A DNA stretch of 63,668 nucleotides, the filler included, from a bacterium (GTDB taxonomy: Bacteria > UBA9089 > CG2-30-40-21 > SBAY01), in NCBI GenBank assembly GCA_040757115.1. It is 13 parts of 13 records of this genome, joined end to end, with 100 filler letters (N's around TTAATTAATTAA, not from the genome) between each part and the next. Parts side by side here need not be neighbours in the genome. Positions count along the whole stretch, not along the records: positions 1 to 23,235 come from JBFLYA010000042.1; 12 more parts are not named here. One strand, given 5' to 3'. Below are positions 659-62,439 of this stretch, in pieces (positions within the stretch are counted from its first letter, which is position 1; every line of letters starts with the position of its first letter). Made by a program: the position numbers and the translations under genes. The notes beneath the pieces were generated by a model. That model was given only the letters and a program-made list of their open reading frames with translations, did no database searches and was not told where the DNA came from.

Positions 659-3523
659 ATGGCAGGAGACAAAATAATTAGTTCATCCCTTTGGCATAAA
701 CTTATTTCTGAAGATAACCTCTACTCTGCCTGGCTTAAGGTAGCCGGGAATATGGGCGCAGGAGGAATAGATAGGGTTAGTATAGAGGATTTTCAACTAA
801 ATCTCCATGAAAATCTTGAGATTATCAAAACCCTGCTTGAGAAACAAGGGTATAACTTCTTACCCTTAATTAGGTTTGAAATAGATAAACCTTCCGGTGG
901 TAAACGACCTTTAGGCATACCCGCGGTAAGGGATAGAATTGTTGAACAGGCTTTACTGATGGTGCTTCAACCAGTATTTGATAAAGATTTCCTCAATTGC
1001 AGTTATGCCTATAGACCAGGTAAATCTCCACATAAGGCGCTAAATAGGGTTGAGCAGTATCTAAAAAATGGCAATCATTGGATGGTAGATGCAGATATTG
1101 ACTCGTTCTTCGAGACTATTGACCATAATCTGTTGATAAAATTTATTGAGCAGAAGATAAGTGATTTTAGAATAATTGAGCTTATAAAAAGGCTACTTAC
1201 AAAAACAGGAGAGATAGAAGATAAAGGCATATCTCAAGGGGCAGTCATCTCACCATTATTGGCTAACATCTATCTTCATCAATTTGACTTAAAGATTACT
1301 GGATATGGATATAGGTTAGTAAGATATGCTGATGATTTCTTAATTCTATGTAAATCTAAGAATGAAGCAGAAGAAGCCTTTAATCTGGCGGCTCGCACTT
1401 TGGAGGAATTGCATCTAAGAATTAATGAGGCAAAGACAAAGATACATAATTTGGAGGATGGATTTATATTCCTGGGATACCAATTTAGCCCAAAAGGGAA
1501 AAGTCCTTCCCCAAAAGCAGTGGAAAGACTCAAAAATAAGATTAAAACGGAGGCTAATCAATTGAATCCATCAAAGGAACGATTGAGGAGTATTATTTGT
1601 GGTTGGAGAGGCTACTTTAAACTTGACCCAGAAAGAGATACGGATTTGATAAAGGCACTTGAGGAAATTTTAAACACAGAACCACAATCTATCCCTGCTC
1701 ATTTAGCTCTCGCCGCTTGTGCTATAGAGGCTGGAGATATTAAAAAGGCTTATGAAATTGCCTCAAATAGAACAAAGTTGCCAGCTTCAGATGCCCCTGA
1801 AACTCATTATCAATGGGGTGTGGTTTATGATGAATTAGATAAGCCTGAGGAAGCCGCTGAAGAGTTCTTTAATACCCTGAAACTCAATCCACAACATAAA
1901 GATGCCTTTTATAGCTTAGGCTTACTTTATCTTAACCAGAAAAAGGTTGATAAATCTATTCGCTACTTTCAAAAGGCAATTCAGATTGACCCTGAGTTTG
2001 CCCTCTCCTATTATGGGCTTGGGTCAGCATTGGAACAATGGGGACTTCGTGGAGCTTCTGCAAAGGCATTTAAAAAGGCTTTTGAACTCAATCCAGAACT
2101 TAAAGAAAGTAGATGCATTAAAGAAGTAGAAAAAGGTAAAGAAAAACTACCATACAACGGATTGGATTTTAGCCTATTTTTAAATCTGTTTATGGGCAGA
2201 GAAGGGGTTTATGCTAAACAATGGGTTGATAGTGGTGGTAAAACAGGATATTTACCCGTAAGAAGTCCTTTAGGCGAAAAGGAAATTAAAGCACATTTAT
2301 CTGGCGAGCAAACTATAGGAATGTATCTTATAAGAGCAGATAATACTGTCAAGGTAATGGTGATAGATATTGATGTAAATAAAAAGATGATACTCAAGTA
2401 TAGCCTCGATGAGGAAATGATGAAAACATTTGATAAAAAGACACAGGAAGATGCTAATAAAATTAGTAGTTTTTGTAATGAATTGGGAATCAATGCCTAT
2501 ATTGAGGATAGTGGTTATAAAGGGAGACATTGCTGGTTTTTCTTTAAACAGCCTCTACGGGCTTCAGAGGTAAGGGAACTTGGGATGATTATTATGAAGA
2601 AGGTTGGTGAACCCGCAGAGGGTATTCATCGAGAACTCTTTCCTATACAAAATATGGTTTCTTCAGATGGCTTAGGTTGTCTGATTAAACTCCCATTAGG
2701 GAAACACAGGGTAACCCAAAAGCGTGCTCTATTTGTAGATTATAAGGGTATCCCTTATTCAGACCAGGCAGAATTTATAAAGGGAATAAAGTTGATAACC
2801 AACGAGGATATTAAACAGGCTATTGAAAGATTACATCTCGAAGTTCAACAAAAAGAAGAGATTTTAAAAGAGGAACCCCAAGATGAATCCATTCAGAAGG
2901 TCATTCAAGGATGTAATGTATTGAGATTTCTGGTTAATAAGGCAAAAGAAACAAAAGACCTTAATCACTACGAAAGATTAGTGCTACTTTATTCCCTGGG
3001 ACATTTAGGTGATGAAGGCAAAAGATACATCCATTATGTTATGAGTCATTGCTTAAATTATAGTTTTCATATCACCCAGCGGTGGTGTAACCGACTTCAG
3101 TATTCTCCTATAAGTTGTCCCAAAATTAGAGACTGGTTATCTAATATTACGCCAGCCATAGGTTGTTACTGTGAATTTAAATTACCAGAAGGCGGCTATC
3201 CCTCACCAGTTCTTTACGCTAATCCCAATGCTACAAAACAAATGGGGATGAAAAAAGACGCTATAGTTAGTCAACATCAACCAGTTTATATTAAAGAAGA
3301 AAAACCAACAGCACTGGCAGAAGGAGAATCTATTGATGAGATAGTGAAAAGATATATTGAGCTTAAAAAACACAAAAGAACAATTGAATTAGACCTGCAA
3401 AAACAAGAGCATAGACTTAATTCGCTATTTGATACAAAAAAGACTGATTCTATCTTGACTGAATTTGGTGTATTAAATAGAATAAACCAGGAAGACAAAA
3501 CTATTTGGATGATTGAGATTTAA
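659..3523 (+). CDS. Reverse transcriptase - TPR - AEP primase-polymerase (CAPP-like) - PriL-like Cys domain fusion, CRISPR-associated
   Basis: RT motifs GAGGID, RPLGIPAVRDR, SYAYRPGKS, DADIDSFF, GISQGAVISPLLANIYL, YADD (1325-1336), FLGY and GWRGYF. About 4 TPRs. AEP motifs DID (2366-2374), SGYKGRH (2510-2530), ELFP and LIKLPLG. Cys cluster GCNVL/HCLNY/PISC/CYC. Confidence 0.9.
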   Translation: MAGDKIISSSLWHKLISEDNLYSAWLKVAGNMGAGGIDRVSIEDFQLNLHENLEIIKTLLEKQGYNFLPLIRFEIDKPSGGKRPLGIPAVRDRIVEQALLMVLQPVFDKDFLNCSYAYRPGKSPHKALNRVEQYLKNGNHWMVDADIDSFFETIDHNLLIKFIEQKISDFRIIELIKRLLTKTGEIEDKGISQGAVISPLLANIYLHQFDLKITGYGYRLVRYADDFLILCKSKNEAEEAFNLAARTLEELHLRINEAKTKIHNLEDGFIFLGYQFSPKGKSPSPKAVERLKNKIKTEANQLNPSKERLRSIICGWRGYFKLDPERDTDLIKALEEILNTEPQSIPAHLALAACAIEAGDIKKAYEIASNRTKLPASDAPETHYQWGVVYDELDKPEEAAEEFFNTLKLNPQHKDAFYSLGLLYLNQKKVDKSIRYFQKAIQIDPEFALSYYGLGSALEQWGLRGASAKAFKKAFELNPELKESRCIKEVEKGKEKLPYNGLDFSLFLNLFMGREGVYAKQWVDSGGKTGYLPVRSPLGEKEIKAHLSGEQTIGMYLIRADNTVKVMVIDIDVNKKMILKYSLDEEMMKTFDKKTQEDANKISSFCNELGINAYIEDSGYKGRHCWFFFKQPLRASEVRELGMIIMKKVGEPAEGIHRELFPIQNMVSSDGLGCLIKLPLGKHRVTQKRALFVDYKGIPYSDQAEFIKGIKLITNEDIKQAIERLHLEVQQKEEILKEEPQDESIQKVIQGCNVLRFLVNKAKETKDLNHYERLVLLYSLGHLGDEGKRYIHYVMSHCLNYSFHITQRWCNRLQYSPISCPKIRDWLSNITPAIGCYCEFKLPEGGYPSPVLYANPNATKQMGMKKDAIVSQHQPVYIKEEKPTALAEGESIDEIVKRYIELKKHKRTIELDLQKQEHRLNSLFDTKKTDSILTEFGVLNRINQEDKTIWMIEI

Positions 3524-3524
3524 A

Positions 3525-4520
3525 ATGGCTACCTTATATTTAACCGAACAAGGTTCTGTAGTAAAGAAAAAGTCACGACGATTGGTAGTGGCTAAAAAAG
3601 AGGAGATTTTGGCAGAAGTTCCTACCTTCAATCTCGAAAGGGTAATTATCTATGGGAATGTCCAGATTACTACGCAGACATTAAACTTCCTTTTAGAATC
3701 AGGGATTGAAACAAGTTTTATGTCAACTCATGGGAAATTCCATGGCAGGCTTGCACCTATGGAATCAAAGAATATTCTATTACGAATTGCTCAGTATGAG
3801 CGATACTTAGATGAAGAGTTTCAAGTAAATCATAGCAAGAGAATAGTAGAGGCAAAGATAAAGAATGGGAGGACAATTATTCAGCGGTATATATCTAATC
3901 ATCCAGAAGTAGATTTTGGAAATGTGGTTGAGGAACTTGCTCAGTCCTTAAAAAGTCTTCAAAACAAAGAAAGGGTTTCAACTATATTAGGCGTAGAGGG
4001 ACAATCTACCGCTAACTATTTTCAAGCCTTTGGGAAAATGTTTAGAGGAGATCTAAAGTTTGCGGGGCGATGCCGGCGTCCCCCTAAGGACCCCATTAAT
4101 GCCCTATTAAGTTTTGGTTATATGCTGATTACTAATGAAATATTATCCATCCTTTGCGCTATAGGTTTTGACCCTTATATTGGGTATCTTCATGGCATTG
4201 ATTATGGTCGGCCATCACTTGCCCTGGATTTGGTTGAAGAATTTAGACATCCAGTAGTTGATAGATTTACCCTGAATTTGATTAATAACCATATCCTCTC
4301 TGAGGATGATTTTGAAAATAAGGGAGAGGAAGGAATCTATTTGAAAAAAGAAGCTCTGACAAAATATTTTGCTCAATATGAACAGATGATAACTCATTCA
4401 TTTACAGATTTTTCTTCAAATGAAAAGATAAATTATAGACTCTTATTTAAAAATCAGGCTTATAAATTGGCTAAAACTATTCAGACAAAAGAACCTTATC
4501 AACCTTTTTTAGTGAGATAA
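3525..4520 (+). CDS. cas1: CRISPR-associated endonuclease Cas1
   Basis: MATLYLTEQGS start, GVEG, RRPPKDPINALLSFGY, GYLHG, SLALDLVEEFR. Confidence 0.97.
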   Translation: MATLYLTEQGSVVKKKSRRLVVAKKEEILAEVPTFNLERVIIYGNVQITTQTLNFLLESGIETSFMSTHGKFHGRLAPMESKNILLRIAQYERYLDEEFQVNHSKRIVEAKIKNGRTIIQRYISNHPEVDFGNVVEELAQSLKSLQNKERVSTILGVEGQSTANYFQAFGKMFRGDLKFAGRCRRPPKDPINALLSFGYMLITNEILSILCAIGFDPYIGYLHGIDYGRPSLALDLVEEFRHPVVDRFTLNLINNHILSEDDFENKGEEGIYLKKEALTKYFAQYEQMITHSFTDFSSNEKINYRLLFKNQAYKLAKTIQTKEPYQPFLVR

Positions 4521-4524
4521 AAAG

Positions 4525-4800
4525 ATGTTTATAGTTGTTTCTTATGATGTCAGGAATGATAAAAAAAGGAATAAGATTGCTAATCTTATGGAAGATTATG
4601 GGACAAGAGTCCAATATAGCGTCTTTGAATGCCATTTAAATCAAAAAGTATTTGACAGGATGGTAAAGGATGTGTTAAAATATCTTCAGATTGAGAAAGA
4701 TAGTCTGCGAATCTATAAGATTTGTGAAGATTGTATTTCAAGGATAGAGGTTTACGGCGTGGGCAGAGTAACAGAAGATGAAGAAGTAATTATTATTTAA
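4525..4800 (+). CDS. cas2: CRISPR-associated endoribonuclease Cas2
   Basis: VVSYDV, YGTRVQYSVFEC, DSLRIY; 91 aa directly after cas1. Confidence 0.97.
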   Translation: MFIVVSYDVRNDKKRNKIANLMEDYGTRVQYSVFECHLNQKVFDRMVKDVLKYLQIEKDSLRIYKICEDCISRIEVYGVGRVTEDEEVIII

Positions 4801-4992
4801 AAACTGAGAATGGGGTTAGTGAAAAAATTGGTCCACCGAGAGGAACCTTGAAAAATAAGGGGAAATTGAGGTAAGTGGTGTTAAAAACAAGCAAAAATTT
4901 GTTTGATTGGAGGTAATTTTTTAATGAAAAAAAGGAGGTTATCGGAAAGTGGGTTATAAGTCTAATAGTATCAAGGGCAAAAACACACCGCA
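4801..4992 (+). promoter_or_regulatory. CRISPR leader
   Basis: AT-rich non-coding stretch between cas2 and the first repeat; degenerate repeats lie at the far end of the array. Confidence 0.75.
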
Positions 4993-6741
4993 GTAGGAAA
5001 ATAAGACCTGATGAATAAGGGATTGCGACTAATGATAAATTATCGTAGATGGAGGCTTCAAAAAGTAGGAAAATAAGACCTGATGAATAAGGGATTGCGA
5101 CATAAGTAAGAAAATTATCAACATCTTGACTATATTTCGTAGGAAAATAAGACCTGATGAATAAGGGATTGCGACTTATCAATAGTAACAGTAGCTGCGG
5201 GTGGTGAAACTGATGTAGGAAAATAAGACCTGATGAATAAGGGATTGCGACATACCTAAATCCAGGTTTATAGCCTGGAGCTTTTTATAAGTAGGAAAAT
5301 AAGACCTGATGAATAAGGGATTGCGACATAATTCTAATATATGCTCCATTTTTATACCTTCCATTTTTAGTAGGAAAATAAGACCTGATGAATAAGGGAT
5401 TGCGACTGTTATAAATGCTATCCAAGAAAAGTTCGGAAGTCAAGCGTAGGAAAATAAGACCTGATGAATAAGGGATTGCGACTGTGGCACGGGAGGATGA
5501 AGAATCGTGTCACGGTCTGTAGGAAAATAAGACCTGATGAATAAGGGATTGCGACGTTGACCTCGACCAAAAAAAATAGCCCTCATTTGTTAGTAGGAAA
5601 ATAAGACCTGATGAATAAGGGATTGCGACACTCCCGAAATGCCTGCTACCGCTATTTTTCTCATACTGTAGGAAAATAAGACCTGATGAATAAGGGATTG
5701 CGACAATACCATCGCAATTCTAAATTTTTTCATTTTACTTGTAGGAAAATAAGACCTGATGAATAAGGGATTGCGACACATAAAGGAGCACTACAGGACA
5801 TTCTACTTTTGCGTAGGAAAATAAGACCTGATGAATAAGGGATTGCGACAAATGGTTGCGGTCCCGTAGATTTTCTTATCCGAGGTGTAGGAAAATAAGA
5901 CCTGATGAATAAGGGATTGCGACATTTTTTGTCATCCATTCTTTAATTCGAGCAATTTTTTCGTAGGAAAATAAGACCTGATGAATAAGGGATTGCGACT
6001 TCTTCTATTTCTTGTTCTAATCCATATATATTCAGTAGGAAAATAAGACCTGATGAATAAGGGATTGCGACCTCCGTCTGCCGAACCAGATGAATTACTA
6101 TTTCTTGAGTAGGAAAATAAGACCTGATGAATAAGGGATTGCGACGATATGAAGAATGGTCGTTTAGAGTAACTTCTCCTTGGTAGGAAAATAAGACCTG
6201 ATGAATAAGGGATTGCGACGTAAAAATCTGTCTTCATTATTTATTAACCTCTTGATGTAGGAAAATAAGACCTGATGAATAAGGGATTGCGACANNNNNN
6301 NNNNNNNNNNNNNNNNNNNNNNNNNNNNNNNNNNNNNNNNNNNNNNNNNNNNNNNNNNNNNNNNNNNNNNNNNNNNNNNNNNNNNNNNNNNNNNAGTAAC
6401 TTCTCCTTGGTAGGAAAATAAGACCTGATGAATAAGGGATTGCGACGTAAAAATCTGTCTTCATTATTTATTAACCTCTTGATGTAGGAAAATAAGACCT
6501 GATGAATAAGGGATTGCGACATTTTAATTCTCCTATATGTCCTCAATTTCATTTCTTGTAGGAAAATAAGACCTGATGAATAAGGGATTGCGACAATTAA
6601 AGAGAGGATTCGCTGCGAATCGGTTTCTCCGTAGGAAAATAAGACCTGATGAATAAGGGATTGCGACTCTATATAATAGATGATAAGAAAAAATTTTTTT
6701 ATTTGTAGGAAAATAAGACCTGATGAATAAGGGATTGCGAC
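4993..6741 (+). CRISPR. CRISPR array, 37-bp repeat GTAGGAAAATAAGACCTGATGAATAAGGGATTGCGAC, 23 full repeats (about 21 after removing assembly overlap), 20 unique spacers of 35-42 nt; type III-like
   Basis: Identical repeats from 4993 to 6741 with an internal N gap at 6295-6394. Degenerate repeat remnants at 7182-7206 and 7295-7319. Confidence 0.98.
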
Positions 6742-6797
6742 GAAGAAAACGGGGCTCGGGACTCGGGACTCGGGACTCGGGGAAAAAGGAGGGTGAA

Positions 6798-7154
6798 ATG
6801 AAAGATTATAAGGAGTTAGAAGTATGGCAGAAAGCTACTGATTTAGTAGTAGAAATATACAAGGAAACGAAATCTTTTCCTCAAGAGGAAAGGTATGGAT
6901 TAACCTCACAGATGCAAAGGGCAGCCATTTCAGTTTCAGCAAATATAGCTGAAGGGTGGGCTCGAGGCTCAACGAGAGAATATATTCAATTTTTGATGAT
7001 AGCCAGAGGTTCTCTGATGGAATTAGAAACACATCTGATTATCTCTAAAAGATTAAGTTACATTCAACCTCAGGTTTTAGAGGGGATGGAAAAAAGGATA
7101 GTGAGTATTTGTATGATGTTGAATCGTTTGATTCAAAGTCTCAAGAAACATTAA
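6798..7154 (+). CDS. Four helix bundle protein (23S rRNA IVP/S23-like, Avd-like fold) inside the CRISPR trailer
   Basis: MKDYKELEVWQKA...FPQEERYGLTSQMQRAAISVSANIAEG...FLMIARGSLMELET; GGAGGG RBS upstream. Confidence 0.9.
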   Translation: MKDYKELEVWQKATDLVVEIYKETKSFPQEERYGLTSQMQRAAISVSANIAEGWARGSTREYIQFLMIARGSLMELETHLIISKRLSYIQPQVLEGMEKRIVSICMMLNRLIQSLKKH

Positions 7155-7172
7155 TTTCTCTTCCCGAGCCCC

Positions 7173-7319
7173 GAACTTAACGACCTGATGAATAAGGGAT
7201 TGCGAGAAAGAAAACGGGACTCGGGGTCCGGGACTCGGGACTCGGGGGAAATTCCCCGTGCCCCGAGCCCCGCGTCCCGTGTCCCGAACTTAACGACCTG
7301 ATGAATAGGGGATTGCGAC
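7173..7319 (+). repeat. Two degenerate CRISPR repeats flanking an empty GGGACTC/CCCGAGC hairpin cassette
   Basis: GAACTTAAC-GACCTGATGAATA(A/G)GGGATTGCGA occurs twice; the intervening heptamer inverted repeats match those flanking the four-helix gene. Confidence 0.85.
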
Positions 7320-7384
7320 AAGAAAAACAAAAATGAAAATTTTTCGACCTGTGCAGGTAGAAAATTAAGGAAGCAGATTTTTAA

Positions 7385-7665
7385 TAGTAAGCGGGTGGAT
7401 TTAGTAAGCGGATTTAACGGATTTAGCGGAAAAAGAAATAAAAAAAAATCCGCTCAATCCGTTTAATCCGCTTACAATAAAAAAATGTAATCTGTTTAAT
7501 CAGCTTACAAAAAAATTCGACCTGTGAAATAGAAATATTTGTGTAAGAAGGGGGATAAGGGGATAAAGGAGATATGGAGATATCAGAGCTAAAGAAAAGG
7601 CAGATTTTAGAAAAGTGGAATTAGAATAATATCCCCTTATCTCCTTAATCTTCCTATCTCCTTTT
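7385..7665. repeat. Two hairpin-type dispersed repeats (GCGGATTTA-like and GGGATAAGG-like periodic inverted arrays)
   Basis: GTAAGCGGATTTAACGGATTTAGCGGA ... TCCGCTCAATCCGTTTAATCCGCTTAC; GGGGATAAGGGGATA ... TATCCCCTTATCTCC (related copies near 15351 and 57758). Confidence 0.7.
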
Positions 7666-7796: not shown

Positions 7797-8004
7797 GTAA
7801 CTATTCACCACGAAGGGTACGGAGAGCACGAAGTGAAATTTGATGAATTATCGAATAGAGTCATTGGATGCGCTATAGCGGTGCATCGAACTCTTGGACC
7901 AGGTTTGCTTGACACCGTGAAGAGTGATAATTCACAATTGACAATTCACCATTCACCATTATTAAGGAAATTTAGGGAAAAAATTGTGAATGGTGAATAG
8001 TTAC
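7797..8004 (+). mobile_element. MITE-like element with a GxxExxY N-terminal fragment
   Basis: TIR GTAACTATTCACCA/TGGTGAATAGTTAC, flanking 8-bp direct repeat CATTAAAT; encodes (M)KFDELSNRVIGCAIAVHRTLGPGLL. Confidence 0.85.
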
Positions 8005-15323: not shown

Positions 15324-15642
15324 GTAACCGTTCAGGCTATATATCAAAAGTGTAAGAAAGGGGATAAGGAGATAAGAGTGATATGGAGATAAGATAATAG
15401 AAATAGATTGAAATTTATAGAAATAGGTAGAAATTGATTGTGGAAAACAACAAATTTCCATAAATTTCTATTAGTTTCTATTAATTTCAATTTTTTTAAT
15501 AATATCTCCCTATCTCCTTAATCTCCACATCTCCTTTTGTTACACCACCTGAACGCTTACAAAAAAAGGAAATTTCTGTCTCTGGTGAATAGATTTTAAT
15601 TTTTTCTCTGCGTCTCTGTGGCATCTTGCGGTGAACGGTTAC
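15324..15642. mobile_element. Tandem GTAAC-family MITEs between ybeY and dgkA
   Basis: GTAACCGTTCAGG...CCTGAACGCTTAC (15324-15560; copies at 57758-57966 and inverse 62289-62412) plus a partial element ending GTGAACGGTTAC. Confidence 0.8.
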
Positions 15643-29400: not shown

Positions 29401-31465
29401 CAGGCGTTCCTTTTCCCATAACCATTATAGCCCGCGATGCCTATGGGAACACGGTGCTTAACTTTAGTGATAAAGTCCAGTTAGAGGATACCTCGCTGAC
29501 CTTAAATCCGAAGATAACCACCAACTTTATGGCAGGTATCTGGGCTGGCATCGGCTCTATTACCAGAACAGGCACTACCGCGATTACGGCAGGTTACCAG
29601 GGAAAGACAGGCACAAGCAATCCATTTTTAGTCCAGGCTGGCAGTCTTTCCTTGATTAAGGTTATGCCAGAAAGTGTAACCTTGCTGCCTGATAAATCAC
29701 AATTATTCACCACCAGAGGCTATGATAGCAATGGGAATGAGAAAGAAGTGGGAGATGGGAAATGGGAAGTAGGAAAAGAGATAGGGAATTTGAGTAATAT
29801 TTTCGGCACAATGACCACATTTACTGCTGGCACAAAGGCGGCATCAGGCATCATCAAGGTAAGTGCAGAAGGAGTCATTGGCACGGCTAATATCCGAATT
29901 GTGCCAGGAAAACTGGCAAAGATAACCATTCTGCCCAAAGATGTGGTGGTAGAGGTAAGCGGGACTTCCACATTTACCGCTTATGGATATGACAAATATG
30001 GGAATGAGAAAGAGGTGGAGAATGGGCAGTGGGAAGTAGGAAGTGAACTGGGCGAGTTGACCAATGTTATTGGCACAAACACGACTTTTGTCGCCGGGAC
30101 AAAACCAGGCAAAGGCACACTTACCTACACAGTAAGAGAAGTGGTTATGAACCTTCATCTCACAAATGAATCTGTCCCCCTCGGGATGTGGATTAAGGGG
30201 GAGGAAAGAAATAATCTCCCCGAGCCCCGAGTCCCGAGCCCCGAGCCCCGAGCCCCGAATCCCGAACCCCGAACCCCGAGCCCCGAGTCCCGAGCCCCGA
30301 NNNNNNNNNNNNNNNNNNNNNNNNNNNNNNNNNNNNNNNNNNNNNNNNNNNNNNNNNNNNNNNNNNNNNNNNNNNNNNNNNNNNNNNNNNNNNNNNNNNN
30401 CCCGAGCCCCGATTTTCAGAGGAGATAATTGGAACAGCCAGCATAACTGTCAGGTCTGGTAGAGTGAGTCGATTTGACTTTGACCCGATTAACCATCAGA
30501 TTATCAACACGAAGTTTGGCATTAAAGTAACTGCCCGGGACAGGTATGGCAATCTGGCAAGTGATTACAACCAGACAGGTTCTCTTACAACTAACTTTGG
30601 TCAAATAAAACCTGCCTTTATTACCTTCAAGAACGGTATATCTACCGGCACAGTAATGATTGAAACTAACAAGGCAGGACCTGATGTCCGTATCAGTCTT
30701 AGAGCCGAGGCAATAGAGTCTCAGAGTAATAATTTTGCTGTTTTATACGATGATGGAAGTGATGTCCGGATTGAAGAGGAAGGCTTGAAGATAGACATTA
30801 AGTCTCATAGTGTAAGTAAAGATTATTACCTAAAGATAGATAAACGAGGTCTGGATGAGGATGAAATTAAGATAGCGAATTTGCGGATGAATCATTATAA
30901 CCCGGGATTTTGTCTGCTAACTGATACCATTATCCGCATAGCAGCTAAAGATGGGGATAAGAAACCGATAGAAGGAGATTTTGGGACACGAACGACCAGA
31001 GTGGCGATTTATTACTATCAGCCACCAAAGAATGTAGCCGAGGAGACATTGAAATTATACATCCTGGATGAGGAATCAATTGAATCGAGGTGGGTGGAGG
31101 TAGCCAATGCACAGGTCTTAATCGGAAGTAATTTTATCTATGGCAATATACCGCATTTTGGGACATTTATCTTGATTGGGGAAGGGATACCGGCGGGTTT
31201 TGATGCGGTTGTGGTCTATCCGAATCCGTTCAAGCCAAGCCGCGGGGATGAAAATATCGTTTTTGAAGGGTTACCAGAGGATACCCAGCTCCGCATCTAC
31301 GACATCTCAGGTAGTTTAGTCAGAGATGAAGAAGGCAAACGCGCCACCTGGATTTGGGATGTTCGGGATAATTATGGGAAGAAGGTAGATAGTGGGGTGT
31401 ATATTTATGTGTTGACTACTGACGATGGGAAAAAGAAGATAGACAAGCTTGCGATTATCAGGTAG
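23492..31465 (+). pseudogene. Large secreted gingipain-like (C25) peptidase with propeptide, CARDB, FG-GAP, FN3, Ig-like repeats and a C-terminal FlgD/T9SS-like domain; interrupted by a frameshift (~23967) and a MITE (~30141-30424)
   Basis: Propeptide GKPKLPV, LRDQRI, PVQFNP; C25 motifs DYLIIT, MLGRLP, YQGHG, VACDT, NLLGEP; GDIDGDGDLEIV repeats; C-terminal VYPNPF...SGVYIY. Track ORFs 23492-23983, 24249-30428 and 30464-31465 are parts of one gene. Confidence 0.8.
28680..29630 (+). repeat. About 3.3 tandem 285-bp (95-aa) intragenic Ig-like repeats
   Basis: ACCAGGG(T/A)AA(A/G)ACAGGCACAAGCAATCC at 28741, 29026, 29311 and 29596. Confidence 0.9.
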
Positions 31466-57555: not shown

Positions 57556-58219
57556 ACATCGTGCACTCCTAATCCTCTATTTTGTAGCAGGACATCGTGC
57601 ACCTTTATTTAGCTCTTTGACATTAATATCTGTTATAATTAACCTCAAAAAGNNNNNNNNNNNNNNNNNNNNNNNNNNNNNNNNNNNNNNNNNNNNTTAA
57701 TTAATTAANNNNNNNNNNNNNNNNNNNNNNNNNNNNNNNNNNNNNNNNNNNNAAAGTGTAAGAAAGGGGATAAGGAGATAAGGGTGATATGGAGATAAGA
57801 TAATAGAAATAGATTGAAATTTATAGAAATAGGTAGAAATTGATTGTGGGAAACAACAAATTTCTATAAATTTCTATTAGTTTCTACTAATTTCAATTTT
57901 TTTAATAATATCTCCCTATCTCCTTAATCTCCACATCTCCTTTTGTTACACCACCTGAACGCTTACAAAAATAGATTATAGAAAAAATCAGCGAAAATCC
58001 GTTAAATCCGTGTCATCCGTGTTCTATTCTTACGGCTATTTTCAGGGGAAACGCTCATGAGCCTGCGGCACACAAAGGGGGATGAAAATTGAGCATAGAG
58101 ATTAGAGATTGGAGATTAGAGATTAGCAAGAGTGCAGGTTCTAATTCACTAATTCTCTAATCTCTAATTAACTATTTTCAGGAGAATCTTTGTGTCCTGG
58201 TGCCCTGGGGGCTGAATAG

Positions 58220-62188: not shown

Positions 62189-62439
62189 NNNNNNNNNNNN
62201 NNNNNNNNNNNNNNNNNNNNNNNNNNNNNNNNTTAATTAATTAANNNNNNNNNNNNNNNNNNNNNNNNNNNNNNNNNNNNNNNNNNNNTTTTCCACAATC
62301 AATTTCTACCTATTTCTATAAATTTCAATCTATTTCTATTATCTTATCTCCATATCACTCTTATCTCCTTATCCCCTTTCTTACACTTTTGATATATAGC
62401 CTGAACGGTTACACAAATTTAAAAAGGGAGTGATGAAAA

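Follow-up and report, generated by a model that had tools for sequence, protein, structure and literature searches.

A small protein-coding cassette lies at the end of a CRISPR array in the window, as we call the whole 63,668-nucleotide stretch of bacterial DNA analysed here (assembly GCA_040757115.1). The cassette consists of a gene for a four-helix-bundle protein between arms of tandem heptamers; it directly follows the last full repeat and is itself followed by a 5′-truncated repeat, by a cassette copy without the open reading frame (ORF) and by another truncated repeat. CRISPR arrays are usually viewed as lists of short non-coding spacers. The explanation that we consider probable from the sequence comparisons is that of a passenger, a cassette lodged in the last repeat, co-transcribed with the precursor of the CRISPR RNAs (pre-crRNA) and spread by the homology of its flanks. 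Its anatomy, its protein family, its multiplicity in the nearest genome (G001), its recurrence in other arrays, its co-orientation with them and the existence of a deletion derivative are direct observations.

Anatomy of the array-end cassette and its protein

The end of the array is made up of the following elements:

4993–6741 (+): CRISPR array with a 37-nt repeat, 23 full copies as assembled
6705–6741 (+): last full repeat, which borders the cassette on the left
6742–6781 (+): left end of the cassette, with the linker GAAGAAAAC (6742–6750) and then about 4.6 GGGACTC-type heptamers in tandem
6798–7154 (+): gene for a four-helix-bundle protein of 118 amino acids, with an AGGAGG ribosome-binding site at 6786–6791, 6 nt before the ATG
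7163–7181 (+): right arm of 11 nt, complementary to the left arm (7163–7173), and linker AACTTAAC (7174–7181)
7182–7205 (+): first 5′-truncated repeat, equal to repeat positions 13–36 (24/24 bases)
7206–7294 (+): ORF-less cassette copy, with linker 7206–7215, arms 7216–7248 and 7254–7286, and linker 7287–7294
7295–7319 (+): second 5′-truncated repeat, repeat positions 13–37 (24/25 bases, one mismatch)
7320–7328 (+): AAGAAAAAC, likely the stump of a third unit's left linker, cut off by unrelated repeats

The layout put forward in the initial annotation, a heptamer-armed ORF with truncated repeats and an empty copy, was borne out base by base. The left arm (6750–6781) has a period of 7 with 96% matches (TRF), the ORF-less unit is built as a 33-nt arm, a 5-nt loop and a 33-nt arm, and a repeat search gave 90% identity between 7182–7251 and 6717–6786. 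Both truncated repeats retain the CCU/AGG stem-loop and the 3′ handle, as had also been claimed, the first one (7182–7205) with most of the 8-nt handle. The insert after the last full repeat measures 440 nt and the repeat downstream of it lacks its first 12 nt, which sets the cassette apart from a CRISPR spacer, that is, an insert of about 35–40 nt between two full repeats.

Within the array, the blocks 6168–6294 and 6395–6521 are 100% identical over 127 nt on either side of an N gap (6295–6394). They probably represent an unmerged scaffold overlap, so that the true number of repeats and spacers would be two fewer than apparent. With N gaps in the window, one of them inside the array and flanked by this duplicated block, and with positions 6748–6753 bridged by none of the public DNA contigs compared, a misassembly of repeats could have joined the cassette to the array, or the resemblance could be due to chance. 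Against this, an independent 617-nt contig of run X1 matches 6753–7369 with zero differences and has a depth of 284, compared to 288–315 for the single-copy flank, and identical junctions are found in G001 and in many other assemblies. The cassette is thus not an assembly accident, and we consider an artefact or a chance resemblance extremely improbable. No contig joining across the cassette, as expected of a strain variant, was found in three DNA contig sets of one groundwater study, although such variants may still exist.

The window protein matched PF05635 over profile positions 1–105 of 106 (E 4e-40, 136.8 bits, cut-off 33.8), TIGR02436 (3e-39, 133.6 bits, cut-off 24) and NF008911 (1.9e-44, 150.9 bits, cut-off 137), and its residues 3–117 were matched by PDB entry 2GSC (XCC0516, a solved pentameric four-helix bundle) with an E value of 8e-26. 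The PF05635, TIGR02436 and 2GSC matches confirm its earlier assignment to the four-helix family of 23S rRNA intervening sequences, which resembles Avd, a protein of diversity-generating retroelements. By analogy with XCC0516 and Avd, the protein probably forms a pentameric barrel. The family motif GxxRxxxSxxxNxxE, as given in the passages of Zhang, Doak & Ye 2014 (PMC3936711) that concern it, is present as RxxxSxxxNxxE with Q in the first position (Q38, R41, S45, N49, E52); across 30 sequences S45 and E52 are invariant and Q38 is nearly so. The likeness of PF05635 to Avd is discussed in the relevant part of PMC10053308. Scores remained below the cut-off for the Avd equivalog model NF033474 (29.2 bits vs 80) and for bAvd PF22296 (19.7 bits vs 40; E 0.0012), and the DivGenRetAVD profile gave E values of 8.6e-07 for the window protein and 6.7e-14 for a cassette protein of G001 (contig C29). 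With its inverted arrays of 7–8-nt units, its own ribosome-binding site and its sense orientation to the host transcript, the element has the makeup of a heptamer-armed cassette. It lies in the trailer of a CRISPR array and not inside a 23S rRNA helix, where a 23S rRNA intervening sequence is located.

Dispersed relatives and recurrence in other arrays

Genome-wide counts were taken from G001, which shares 34% of sampled words with the window. This genome has 39 PF05635 matches, 27 of which score above the cut-off. Flanks were read for the long matches, 17 in number, whereas 22 short or truncated ones were set aside; every long match is flanked by tandem arrays of 7–10 nt, each with a unit of its own, and 15 of them lie at loci without the repeat, mostly just 5′ of a co-directional host gene. 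The window contains 62 tandem arrays with a period of 7 or 8 as well as 16 inverted pairs, together with a single gene of the PF05635 family, that of the array cassette. Among metagenome sequences, the 80 nearest relatives of the window protein are 39–64% identical to it; a repeat core within 800 nt was found for none of these 80, and none lies in an array. Arrays of period 6–10 flank 39 of 60 distinct loci, as opposed to 3 of 77 control windows taken 1.2 kb away. Judged from these sequence features, the window ORF is a member of a large dispersed family of small, hairpin-armed four-helix cassettes. The initial annotation had named two findings that together would speak against its proposal: a lack of transcription or processing beyond the array, and a generic cassette present at many unrelated loci free of repeats. 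The second largely holds for this type of cassette.

An alternative cassette layout was seen at L003/L032 (G001 contig C29, 9400–9950) and at L002, L011, L018 and L019, where the gene does not lie in the hairpin loop. It is flanked there by two direct copies of the whole hairpin or of one arm, forming direct repeats of 17–34 nt.

The exact 24-nt core of the repeat was found in 54 stretches of 41 other assemblies, labelled Brocadiaceae/Planctomycetota, Nitrospirota, Thermodesulfobacteriota, Zixibacteria, Nitrospinota and others, and a search of viral contigs for the same core returned no exact match. The first 12 nt of the repeat vary among lineages and the last 25 nt are conserved. In nine of the 41 assemblies hairpin elements abut a repeat copy, as seen in contexts of at least 1 kb (L039, L052/L062, L063, L069, L073, L083, L084, L088 and L089; L052/L062, with the layout of the G021 contigs, were counted once). 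Six further assemblies show the same on contexts of 46–70 nt (L037, L047, L054, L059, L067 and L074). An intact four-helix gene adjoins a truncated repeat in five of the 41 assemblies, in addition to the window and to two cases in G001; L057, where the gene is found 600 nt beyond the array on the opposite strand and without repeat flanks, was left out. Gene and array are co-directional in every one of the eight loaded cases, one from the window, two from G001 and five from the other assemblies; this carries small statistical weight, as only about four independent cassette types are involved. The genomes with an array-embedded gene contain 4–20 PF05635 matches each, exactly one of which is in an array.

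In G001 a second array lies behind csm1–csm5 and is therefore of type III-A, as is inferred by analogy for the window array. This second array (L031, contig C761, 7340–9320) is a mosaic of spacers and long inserts. The latter comprise a 3′ fragment of cas2 together with a leader copy, another copy of the leader, a four-helix cassette with a truncated repeat after it, the gene for a tyrosine transposase associated with repetitive extragenic palindromic (REP) sequences, flanked by GTAG-type hairpins, and a remnant of the window cassette. Linker and arm as in the window follow repeats in G001. The REP-associated transposase (RAYT) was considered as a mover of the cassettes and found unsupported, its GTAG-type hairpins being different from the cassette ends. 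Taken together, the sequences indicate that this repeat family offers hairpin elements a niche in its arrays, one that they have taken up repeatedly.

The remnant on C761 also bears on the origin of the empty copy. It is orthologous to the window cassette, with matching linker, arms, 3′ untranslated stretch and right linker, and alignment showed an internal deletion of about 310 nt that left the last ~11 codons of the gene. The ORF-less unit of the window can be aligned both with the loaded unit and with this remnant. A second cassette type with GCAGAGG arms is loaded on C29 of G001 and at a contig end of G021 and is present without its ORF three times in G021; in these ORF-less copies the start and stop regions have collapsed onto a common 7-nt stretch, a sign of microhomology. 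The remnant in G001 and the collapsed GCAGAGG copies together identify empty copies as decayed loaded ones. The comparison of related genomes that the initial annotation had proposed thus yielded a deleted remnant of the very same cassette, and its view of the loaded/empty pair as the gain of a cassette at a vacant site was not upheld. Unequal recombination between the two direct repeat copies probably created the second unit in tandem, which would subsequently have lost its ORF by a deletion between the arms.

Junctions, possible capture and proposed expression

On its two sides, each element has a directly duplicated repeat segment of 17–25 nt, in which the stem-loop is always included. The duplicated segments are:

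Window type and 'clade A': repeat positions 13–37 (25 nt)
GCAGAGG type and L073/L089 type: repeat positions 13–33 (21 nt)
L084 and L063 types: repeat positions about 13–15 to 32 (~18–20 nt)

The length of the duplication is fixed within a type over three to five insertions in one array or genome, and it tracks the cassette type, with two lengths found side by side in G001 on the same repeat core. Four cassette types whose ends are unrelated have the right-hand boundary at repeat position 13 in common. The 5′ part is normal in 400 of the 426 repeat cores in arrays, and no truncated core comes after a spacer of the usual size, which ties truncation to the long inserts. At L063 (5650–7250) and L084 (6800–7350, reverse strand), ORF-less heptamer hairpins occupy four or five repeats. 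Their junctions are identical at every insertion within one array, which looks like spread within the array. For the window, the cassette would have lodged in the last repeat with duplication of positions 13–37 on its far side, and most likely such elements, once in a repeat, spread from repeat to repeat and from array to array via the homology of the flanking repeat pieces.

The genes upstream of the array introduce a different way for the cassette to enter:

67–648: Csm6-like ORF, weak match, at the window start
659–3523 (+): fusion of a group-II-intron-type reverse transcriptase (RT), tetratricopeptide (TPR) repeats and a CRISPR-associated primase-polymerase (PrimPol) (RVT_1 5.1e-36, AEP-TOTE 3e-51)
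3513–4520 (+): cas1 (PF01867 2.1e-95; TIGR00287 3.3e-87)
4525–4800 (+): cas2 (PF09827 2.2e-24)
4801–4992 (+): array leader, with a GGAGGTTA..GGAAA motif about 60 nt 5′ of the first repeat

The fusion protein of 954 amino acids, encoded directly 5′ of cas1–cas2 and matched by group_II_RT_mat (1.4e-94) and PrimPol_Msp (8e-122) in a profile search, is part of the adaptation module. In other loci of the repeat family, the corresponding modules had either RT or TPR-PrimPol, never both in one ORF. The leader motif resembles, in a comparison by eye, the stretch 5′ of the first repeat in other arrays of the family, and as the leader is on the cas2 side the cassette is at the trailer end of the array.

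Cas1–Cas2, possibly with the RT-PrimPol fusion acting on cassette RNA, might have integrated the cassette as a giant 'spacer', by out-of-register cuts at the repeat–spacer border and between repeat positions 12 and 13 that would give a duplication of 25 nt and not of 37 nt. A direct duplication of part of the repeat around the insert is what a staggered integrase cut would leave, and a boundary shared by types with unrelated ends suggests that the site is set by the target rather than by the element. RT or PrimPol genes adjoin cas1–cas2 in 10 of 16 loci of the repeat family with a cas1 or cas2 match, and '23S rRNA IVP' appears among new adaptation-module associations in the legend of Fig. 6B of Altae-Tran et al. 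2023 (PMC10910872). However, the duplicated piece varies in length (25, 21 or ~18–20 nt) with the cassette lineage and not with the host, two of the lengths being present in G001, and the lack of truncated cores after normal spacers among the 426 shows no general habit of out-of-register integration. Moreover, the window cassette is found at the trailer end instead of the leader end, the insert exceeds the length of a spacer more than tenfold and most relatives of the cassette are far from any CRISPR. We therefore regard capture by the adaptation machinery as unlikely.

The relation of the protein to the array was addressed with a tree of four-helix proteins found in the window, in G001 and in five other genomes. 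Removal of identical C-terminal 100-mers reduced the 58 matches to 53 distinct proteins, and those above 125 amino acids were shortened to the final 122 residues. An exclusive clade (support 94/89) is made up of five array-embedded genes, each from a different genome, and the label 'array' required 4 changes on the tree compared to a mean of 7.6 after shuffling, with none of 500 shuffles as low. Within this clade pN, the proportion of non-synonymous differences, was 0.09–0.36 and pS, that of synonymous ones, was 0.70–0.95, i.e. saturated, which points to purifying selection and to an old association. The window protein is outside the clade, on a branch by itself where the tree has little resolution. 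The members of the array-only clade also have a small GC hairpin directly 5′ of the truncated repeat and a mirror-image one 3′ of the upstream repeat (L031, 8360–8375; at the same place in L088, L039, L037, L069 and L083). Read by eye, the stems of these hairpins vary from genome to genome by paired changes (e.g. CCAGC/GCTGG, CCGGC/GCCGG, AGGCC/GGCCT).

Such a clade under purifying selection would be expected if the protein were an accessory factor, an Avd-like partner of the RT-PrimPol fusion or of the type III system, encoded in the array for Cas6-coupled expression. The weak matches to Avd of a family homologous to it and the co-orientation of all eight genes with their arrays are in line with this, as are the eighteen 23S_rRNA_IVP genes that Zhang, Doak & Ye 2014 (PMC3936711) report from various types of cas loci, where they are often close to cas4 or cas6. 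For the window copy, in contrast, the nearest relative G001 deleted the gene and kept the arms and the repeat pieces, which argues against a needed host function. In addition, the window protein does not belong to the array-only clade, its score for the Avd model remains below the cut-off (29.2 vs 80 bits), the neighbouring RT is of the group II intron type and not of that of diversity-generating retroelements, and the same genomes carry 4–39 other copies far from any RT. A complex prediction with four protein copies and RT residues 1–330 gave a score of 0.00, which on its shallow alignments has no weight either way. An accessory role is, in our view, more doubtful still than capture.

For the passenger, we infer co-transcription, processing, the way of spreading and a role of the protein as follows. 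No promoter-like or terminator-like sites were found on the plus strand in a scan of 6600–6800, and no cas6 gene was identified in the window. The stem-loop and 8-nt handle that mark a Cas6 substrate are retained in the truncated repeats at the sequence level, with a weak predicted CCU/AGG stem of 3 bp (−3.0 and −2.4 kcal/mol). The ORF-less unit is predicted to form a near-perfect hairpin (−53.8 kcal/mol, z −5.4, none of 200 shuffles as good). The co-orientation, the lack of promoter and terminator, the retained stem-loops and the recurrence of the layout make read-through of the array and repeat-directed processing plausible. A cassette without a promoter of its own would be read through from the leader within the pre-crRNA. 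Its mRNA could be freed by Cas6 at the repeat copies on either side, by RNase III acting on the paired arms, or by both, and would be translated from its own Shine-Dalgarno sequence. The protein would then serve the cassette and not the CRISPR system.

Several points weigh against the passenger explanation in this form. Chance insertion followed by homology-driven spread fails to explain the common boundary at position 13, which points to a site-determined step such as out-of-register Cas1–Cas2 integration. The array-only clade may reflect a dedicated relation to arrays. The right arm of the loaded unit measures just 11 nt, and the predicted fold of 6705–7330 (−185.4 kcal/mol, z −3.7) pairs its long left arm with the more distant arm (7254–7286) of the empty unit, so that the two units may act as one nested structure. 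Finally, the recurrence counts come from ascertained loci and are not an unbiased enrichment over intergenic DNA, and the phylum labels are those of metagenome bins, in which array contigs are easily misplaced.

Known systems and further elements in the window

ORF-bearing intervening sequences of 23S rRNA were reportedly described in Leptospira and Coxiella by Ralph and McClelland in 1993. They resemble the window cassette in that a small ORF of PF05635 lies between complementary arms and in that a sense insert in the gene of a transcribed non-coding RNA is expected to be excised at the RNA level. They differ in that the host transcript of the window cassette is a pre-crRNA, that its arms are tandem heptamers, that a duplicated piece of the CRISPR repeat forms its flanks and that excision by RNase III is only predicted. 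The heptamer-armed cassettes at operon sites described above have in common with it the gene family, the inverted arrays of 7–8-nt units, the own ribosome-binding site, the co-directional placement and the presence in a genome of numerous copies that differ in their heptamer, whereas the window copy is located in a CRISPR repeat with a 25-nt duplication and a tandem ORF-less twin. A literature search found no paper on heptamer-armed four-helix cassettes at operon sites.

The passages of PMC3936711 and PMC10910872 cited here tie the same family to CRISPR-Cas neighbourhoods, including adaptation modules. In those passages the genes are placed among the cas genes, and in-array genes, truncated repeats or heptamer arms do not appear. 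Our literature search likewise found no paper with an in-array gene, with truncated flanking repeats or with heptamer arms, although the supplements of both articles may list such loci.

Avd of diversity-generating retroelements shares the homologous four-helix-bundle fold and the nearby RT gene. Unlike Avd, the window protein scores below the cut-off of the Avd model, its neighbour is an RT of the group II intron type and dozens of its paralogues have no RT; a template/variable repeat pair was not seen, no search having been aimed at one. Integrons offer another comparison. Their gene cassettes are small promoter-less genes in an array, each with a structured, recombination-prone site (the attC hairpin), and are read from an upstream promoter. 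Loaded and decayed units side by side are a common trait. In the window a fragment of the CRISPR repeat takes the place of such a site and the cassette has long inverted arms of its own, and no integrase was seen, none having been searched for.

A protein gene, its relatives and empty hairpins thus sit in CRISPR arrays repeatably, with the junction at one base of the repeat. If array enzymes insert or process the cassettes, the machinery of adaptation and crRNA maturation would turn out to have a new use, and there would be a first functional handle on the four-helix (intervening-sequence or Avd-like) family outside diversity-generating retroelements. Taken furthest, arrays could be the home of dedicated protein-coding 'spacers', with the repeat position 12|13 as attachment site, inserted by Cas1–Cas2 with RT or PrimPol and with the Cas6 signal maturing their mRNA; a lineage of them would have been kept in several phyla until silent sites were saturated, and the Avd-like protein might feed RNA or cDNA to RT-linked adaptation. 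We consider this picture unlikely. If the cassettes are passengers only, they still mark the repeat family as a hot spot of hairpin elements, account for 'solitary' and truncated repeats and set a trap for array-finding software and spacer catalogues.

Further repeats and cassette-like elements were noted in the window. The motif TTCGACCTGTG at 7343 and 7516 was considered as a pair of further decayed truncated repeats and rejected, since G001 has 52 copies of this 21-nt motif, often in inverted pairs. It belongs to a separate dispersed repeat with the end motif TTCGACCTGTG..TAGAAA, of which two copies are found in the window at 7336–7545 and 52 in G001 (at most one mismatch). The inverted pairs are often 130–200 nt apart, reminiscent of miniature inverted-repeat transposable elements, and contig depth is about 15 times that of the flanks. 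At 7833–8000 a truncated ORF, which weakly matches the first part of the GxxExxY / PDDEXK_3 family (E 1.4e-4 and 5.3e-4), leads into an inverted pair of AATTCAC heptamers; these are probably the remains of another type of heptamer-armed cassette. CCCCGAG heptamers, complementary to the cassette's left arm, are present in at least 12 tandem copies at 30218–30412, where they adjoin an N gap within the reading frame of a giant surface protein of more than 2000 codons. Finally, nested hairpin arrays, with AAGGAGAT as the outer and ATAGAAATAG as the inner unit, occur three times in the window (15358–15536, 57764–57942 and 62298–62378).

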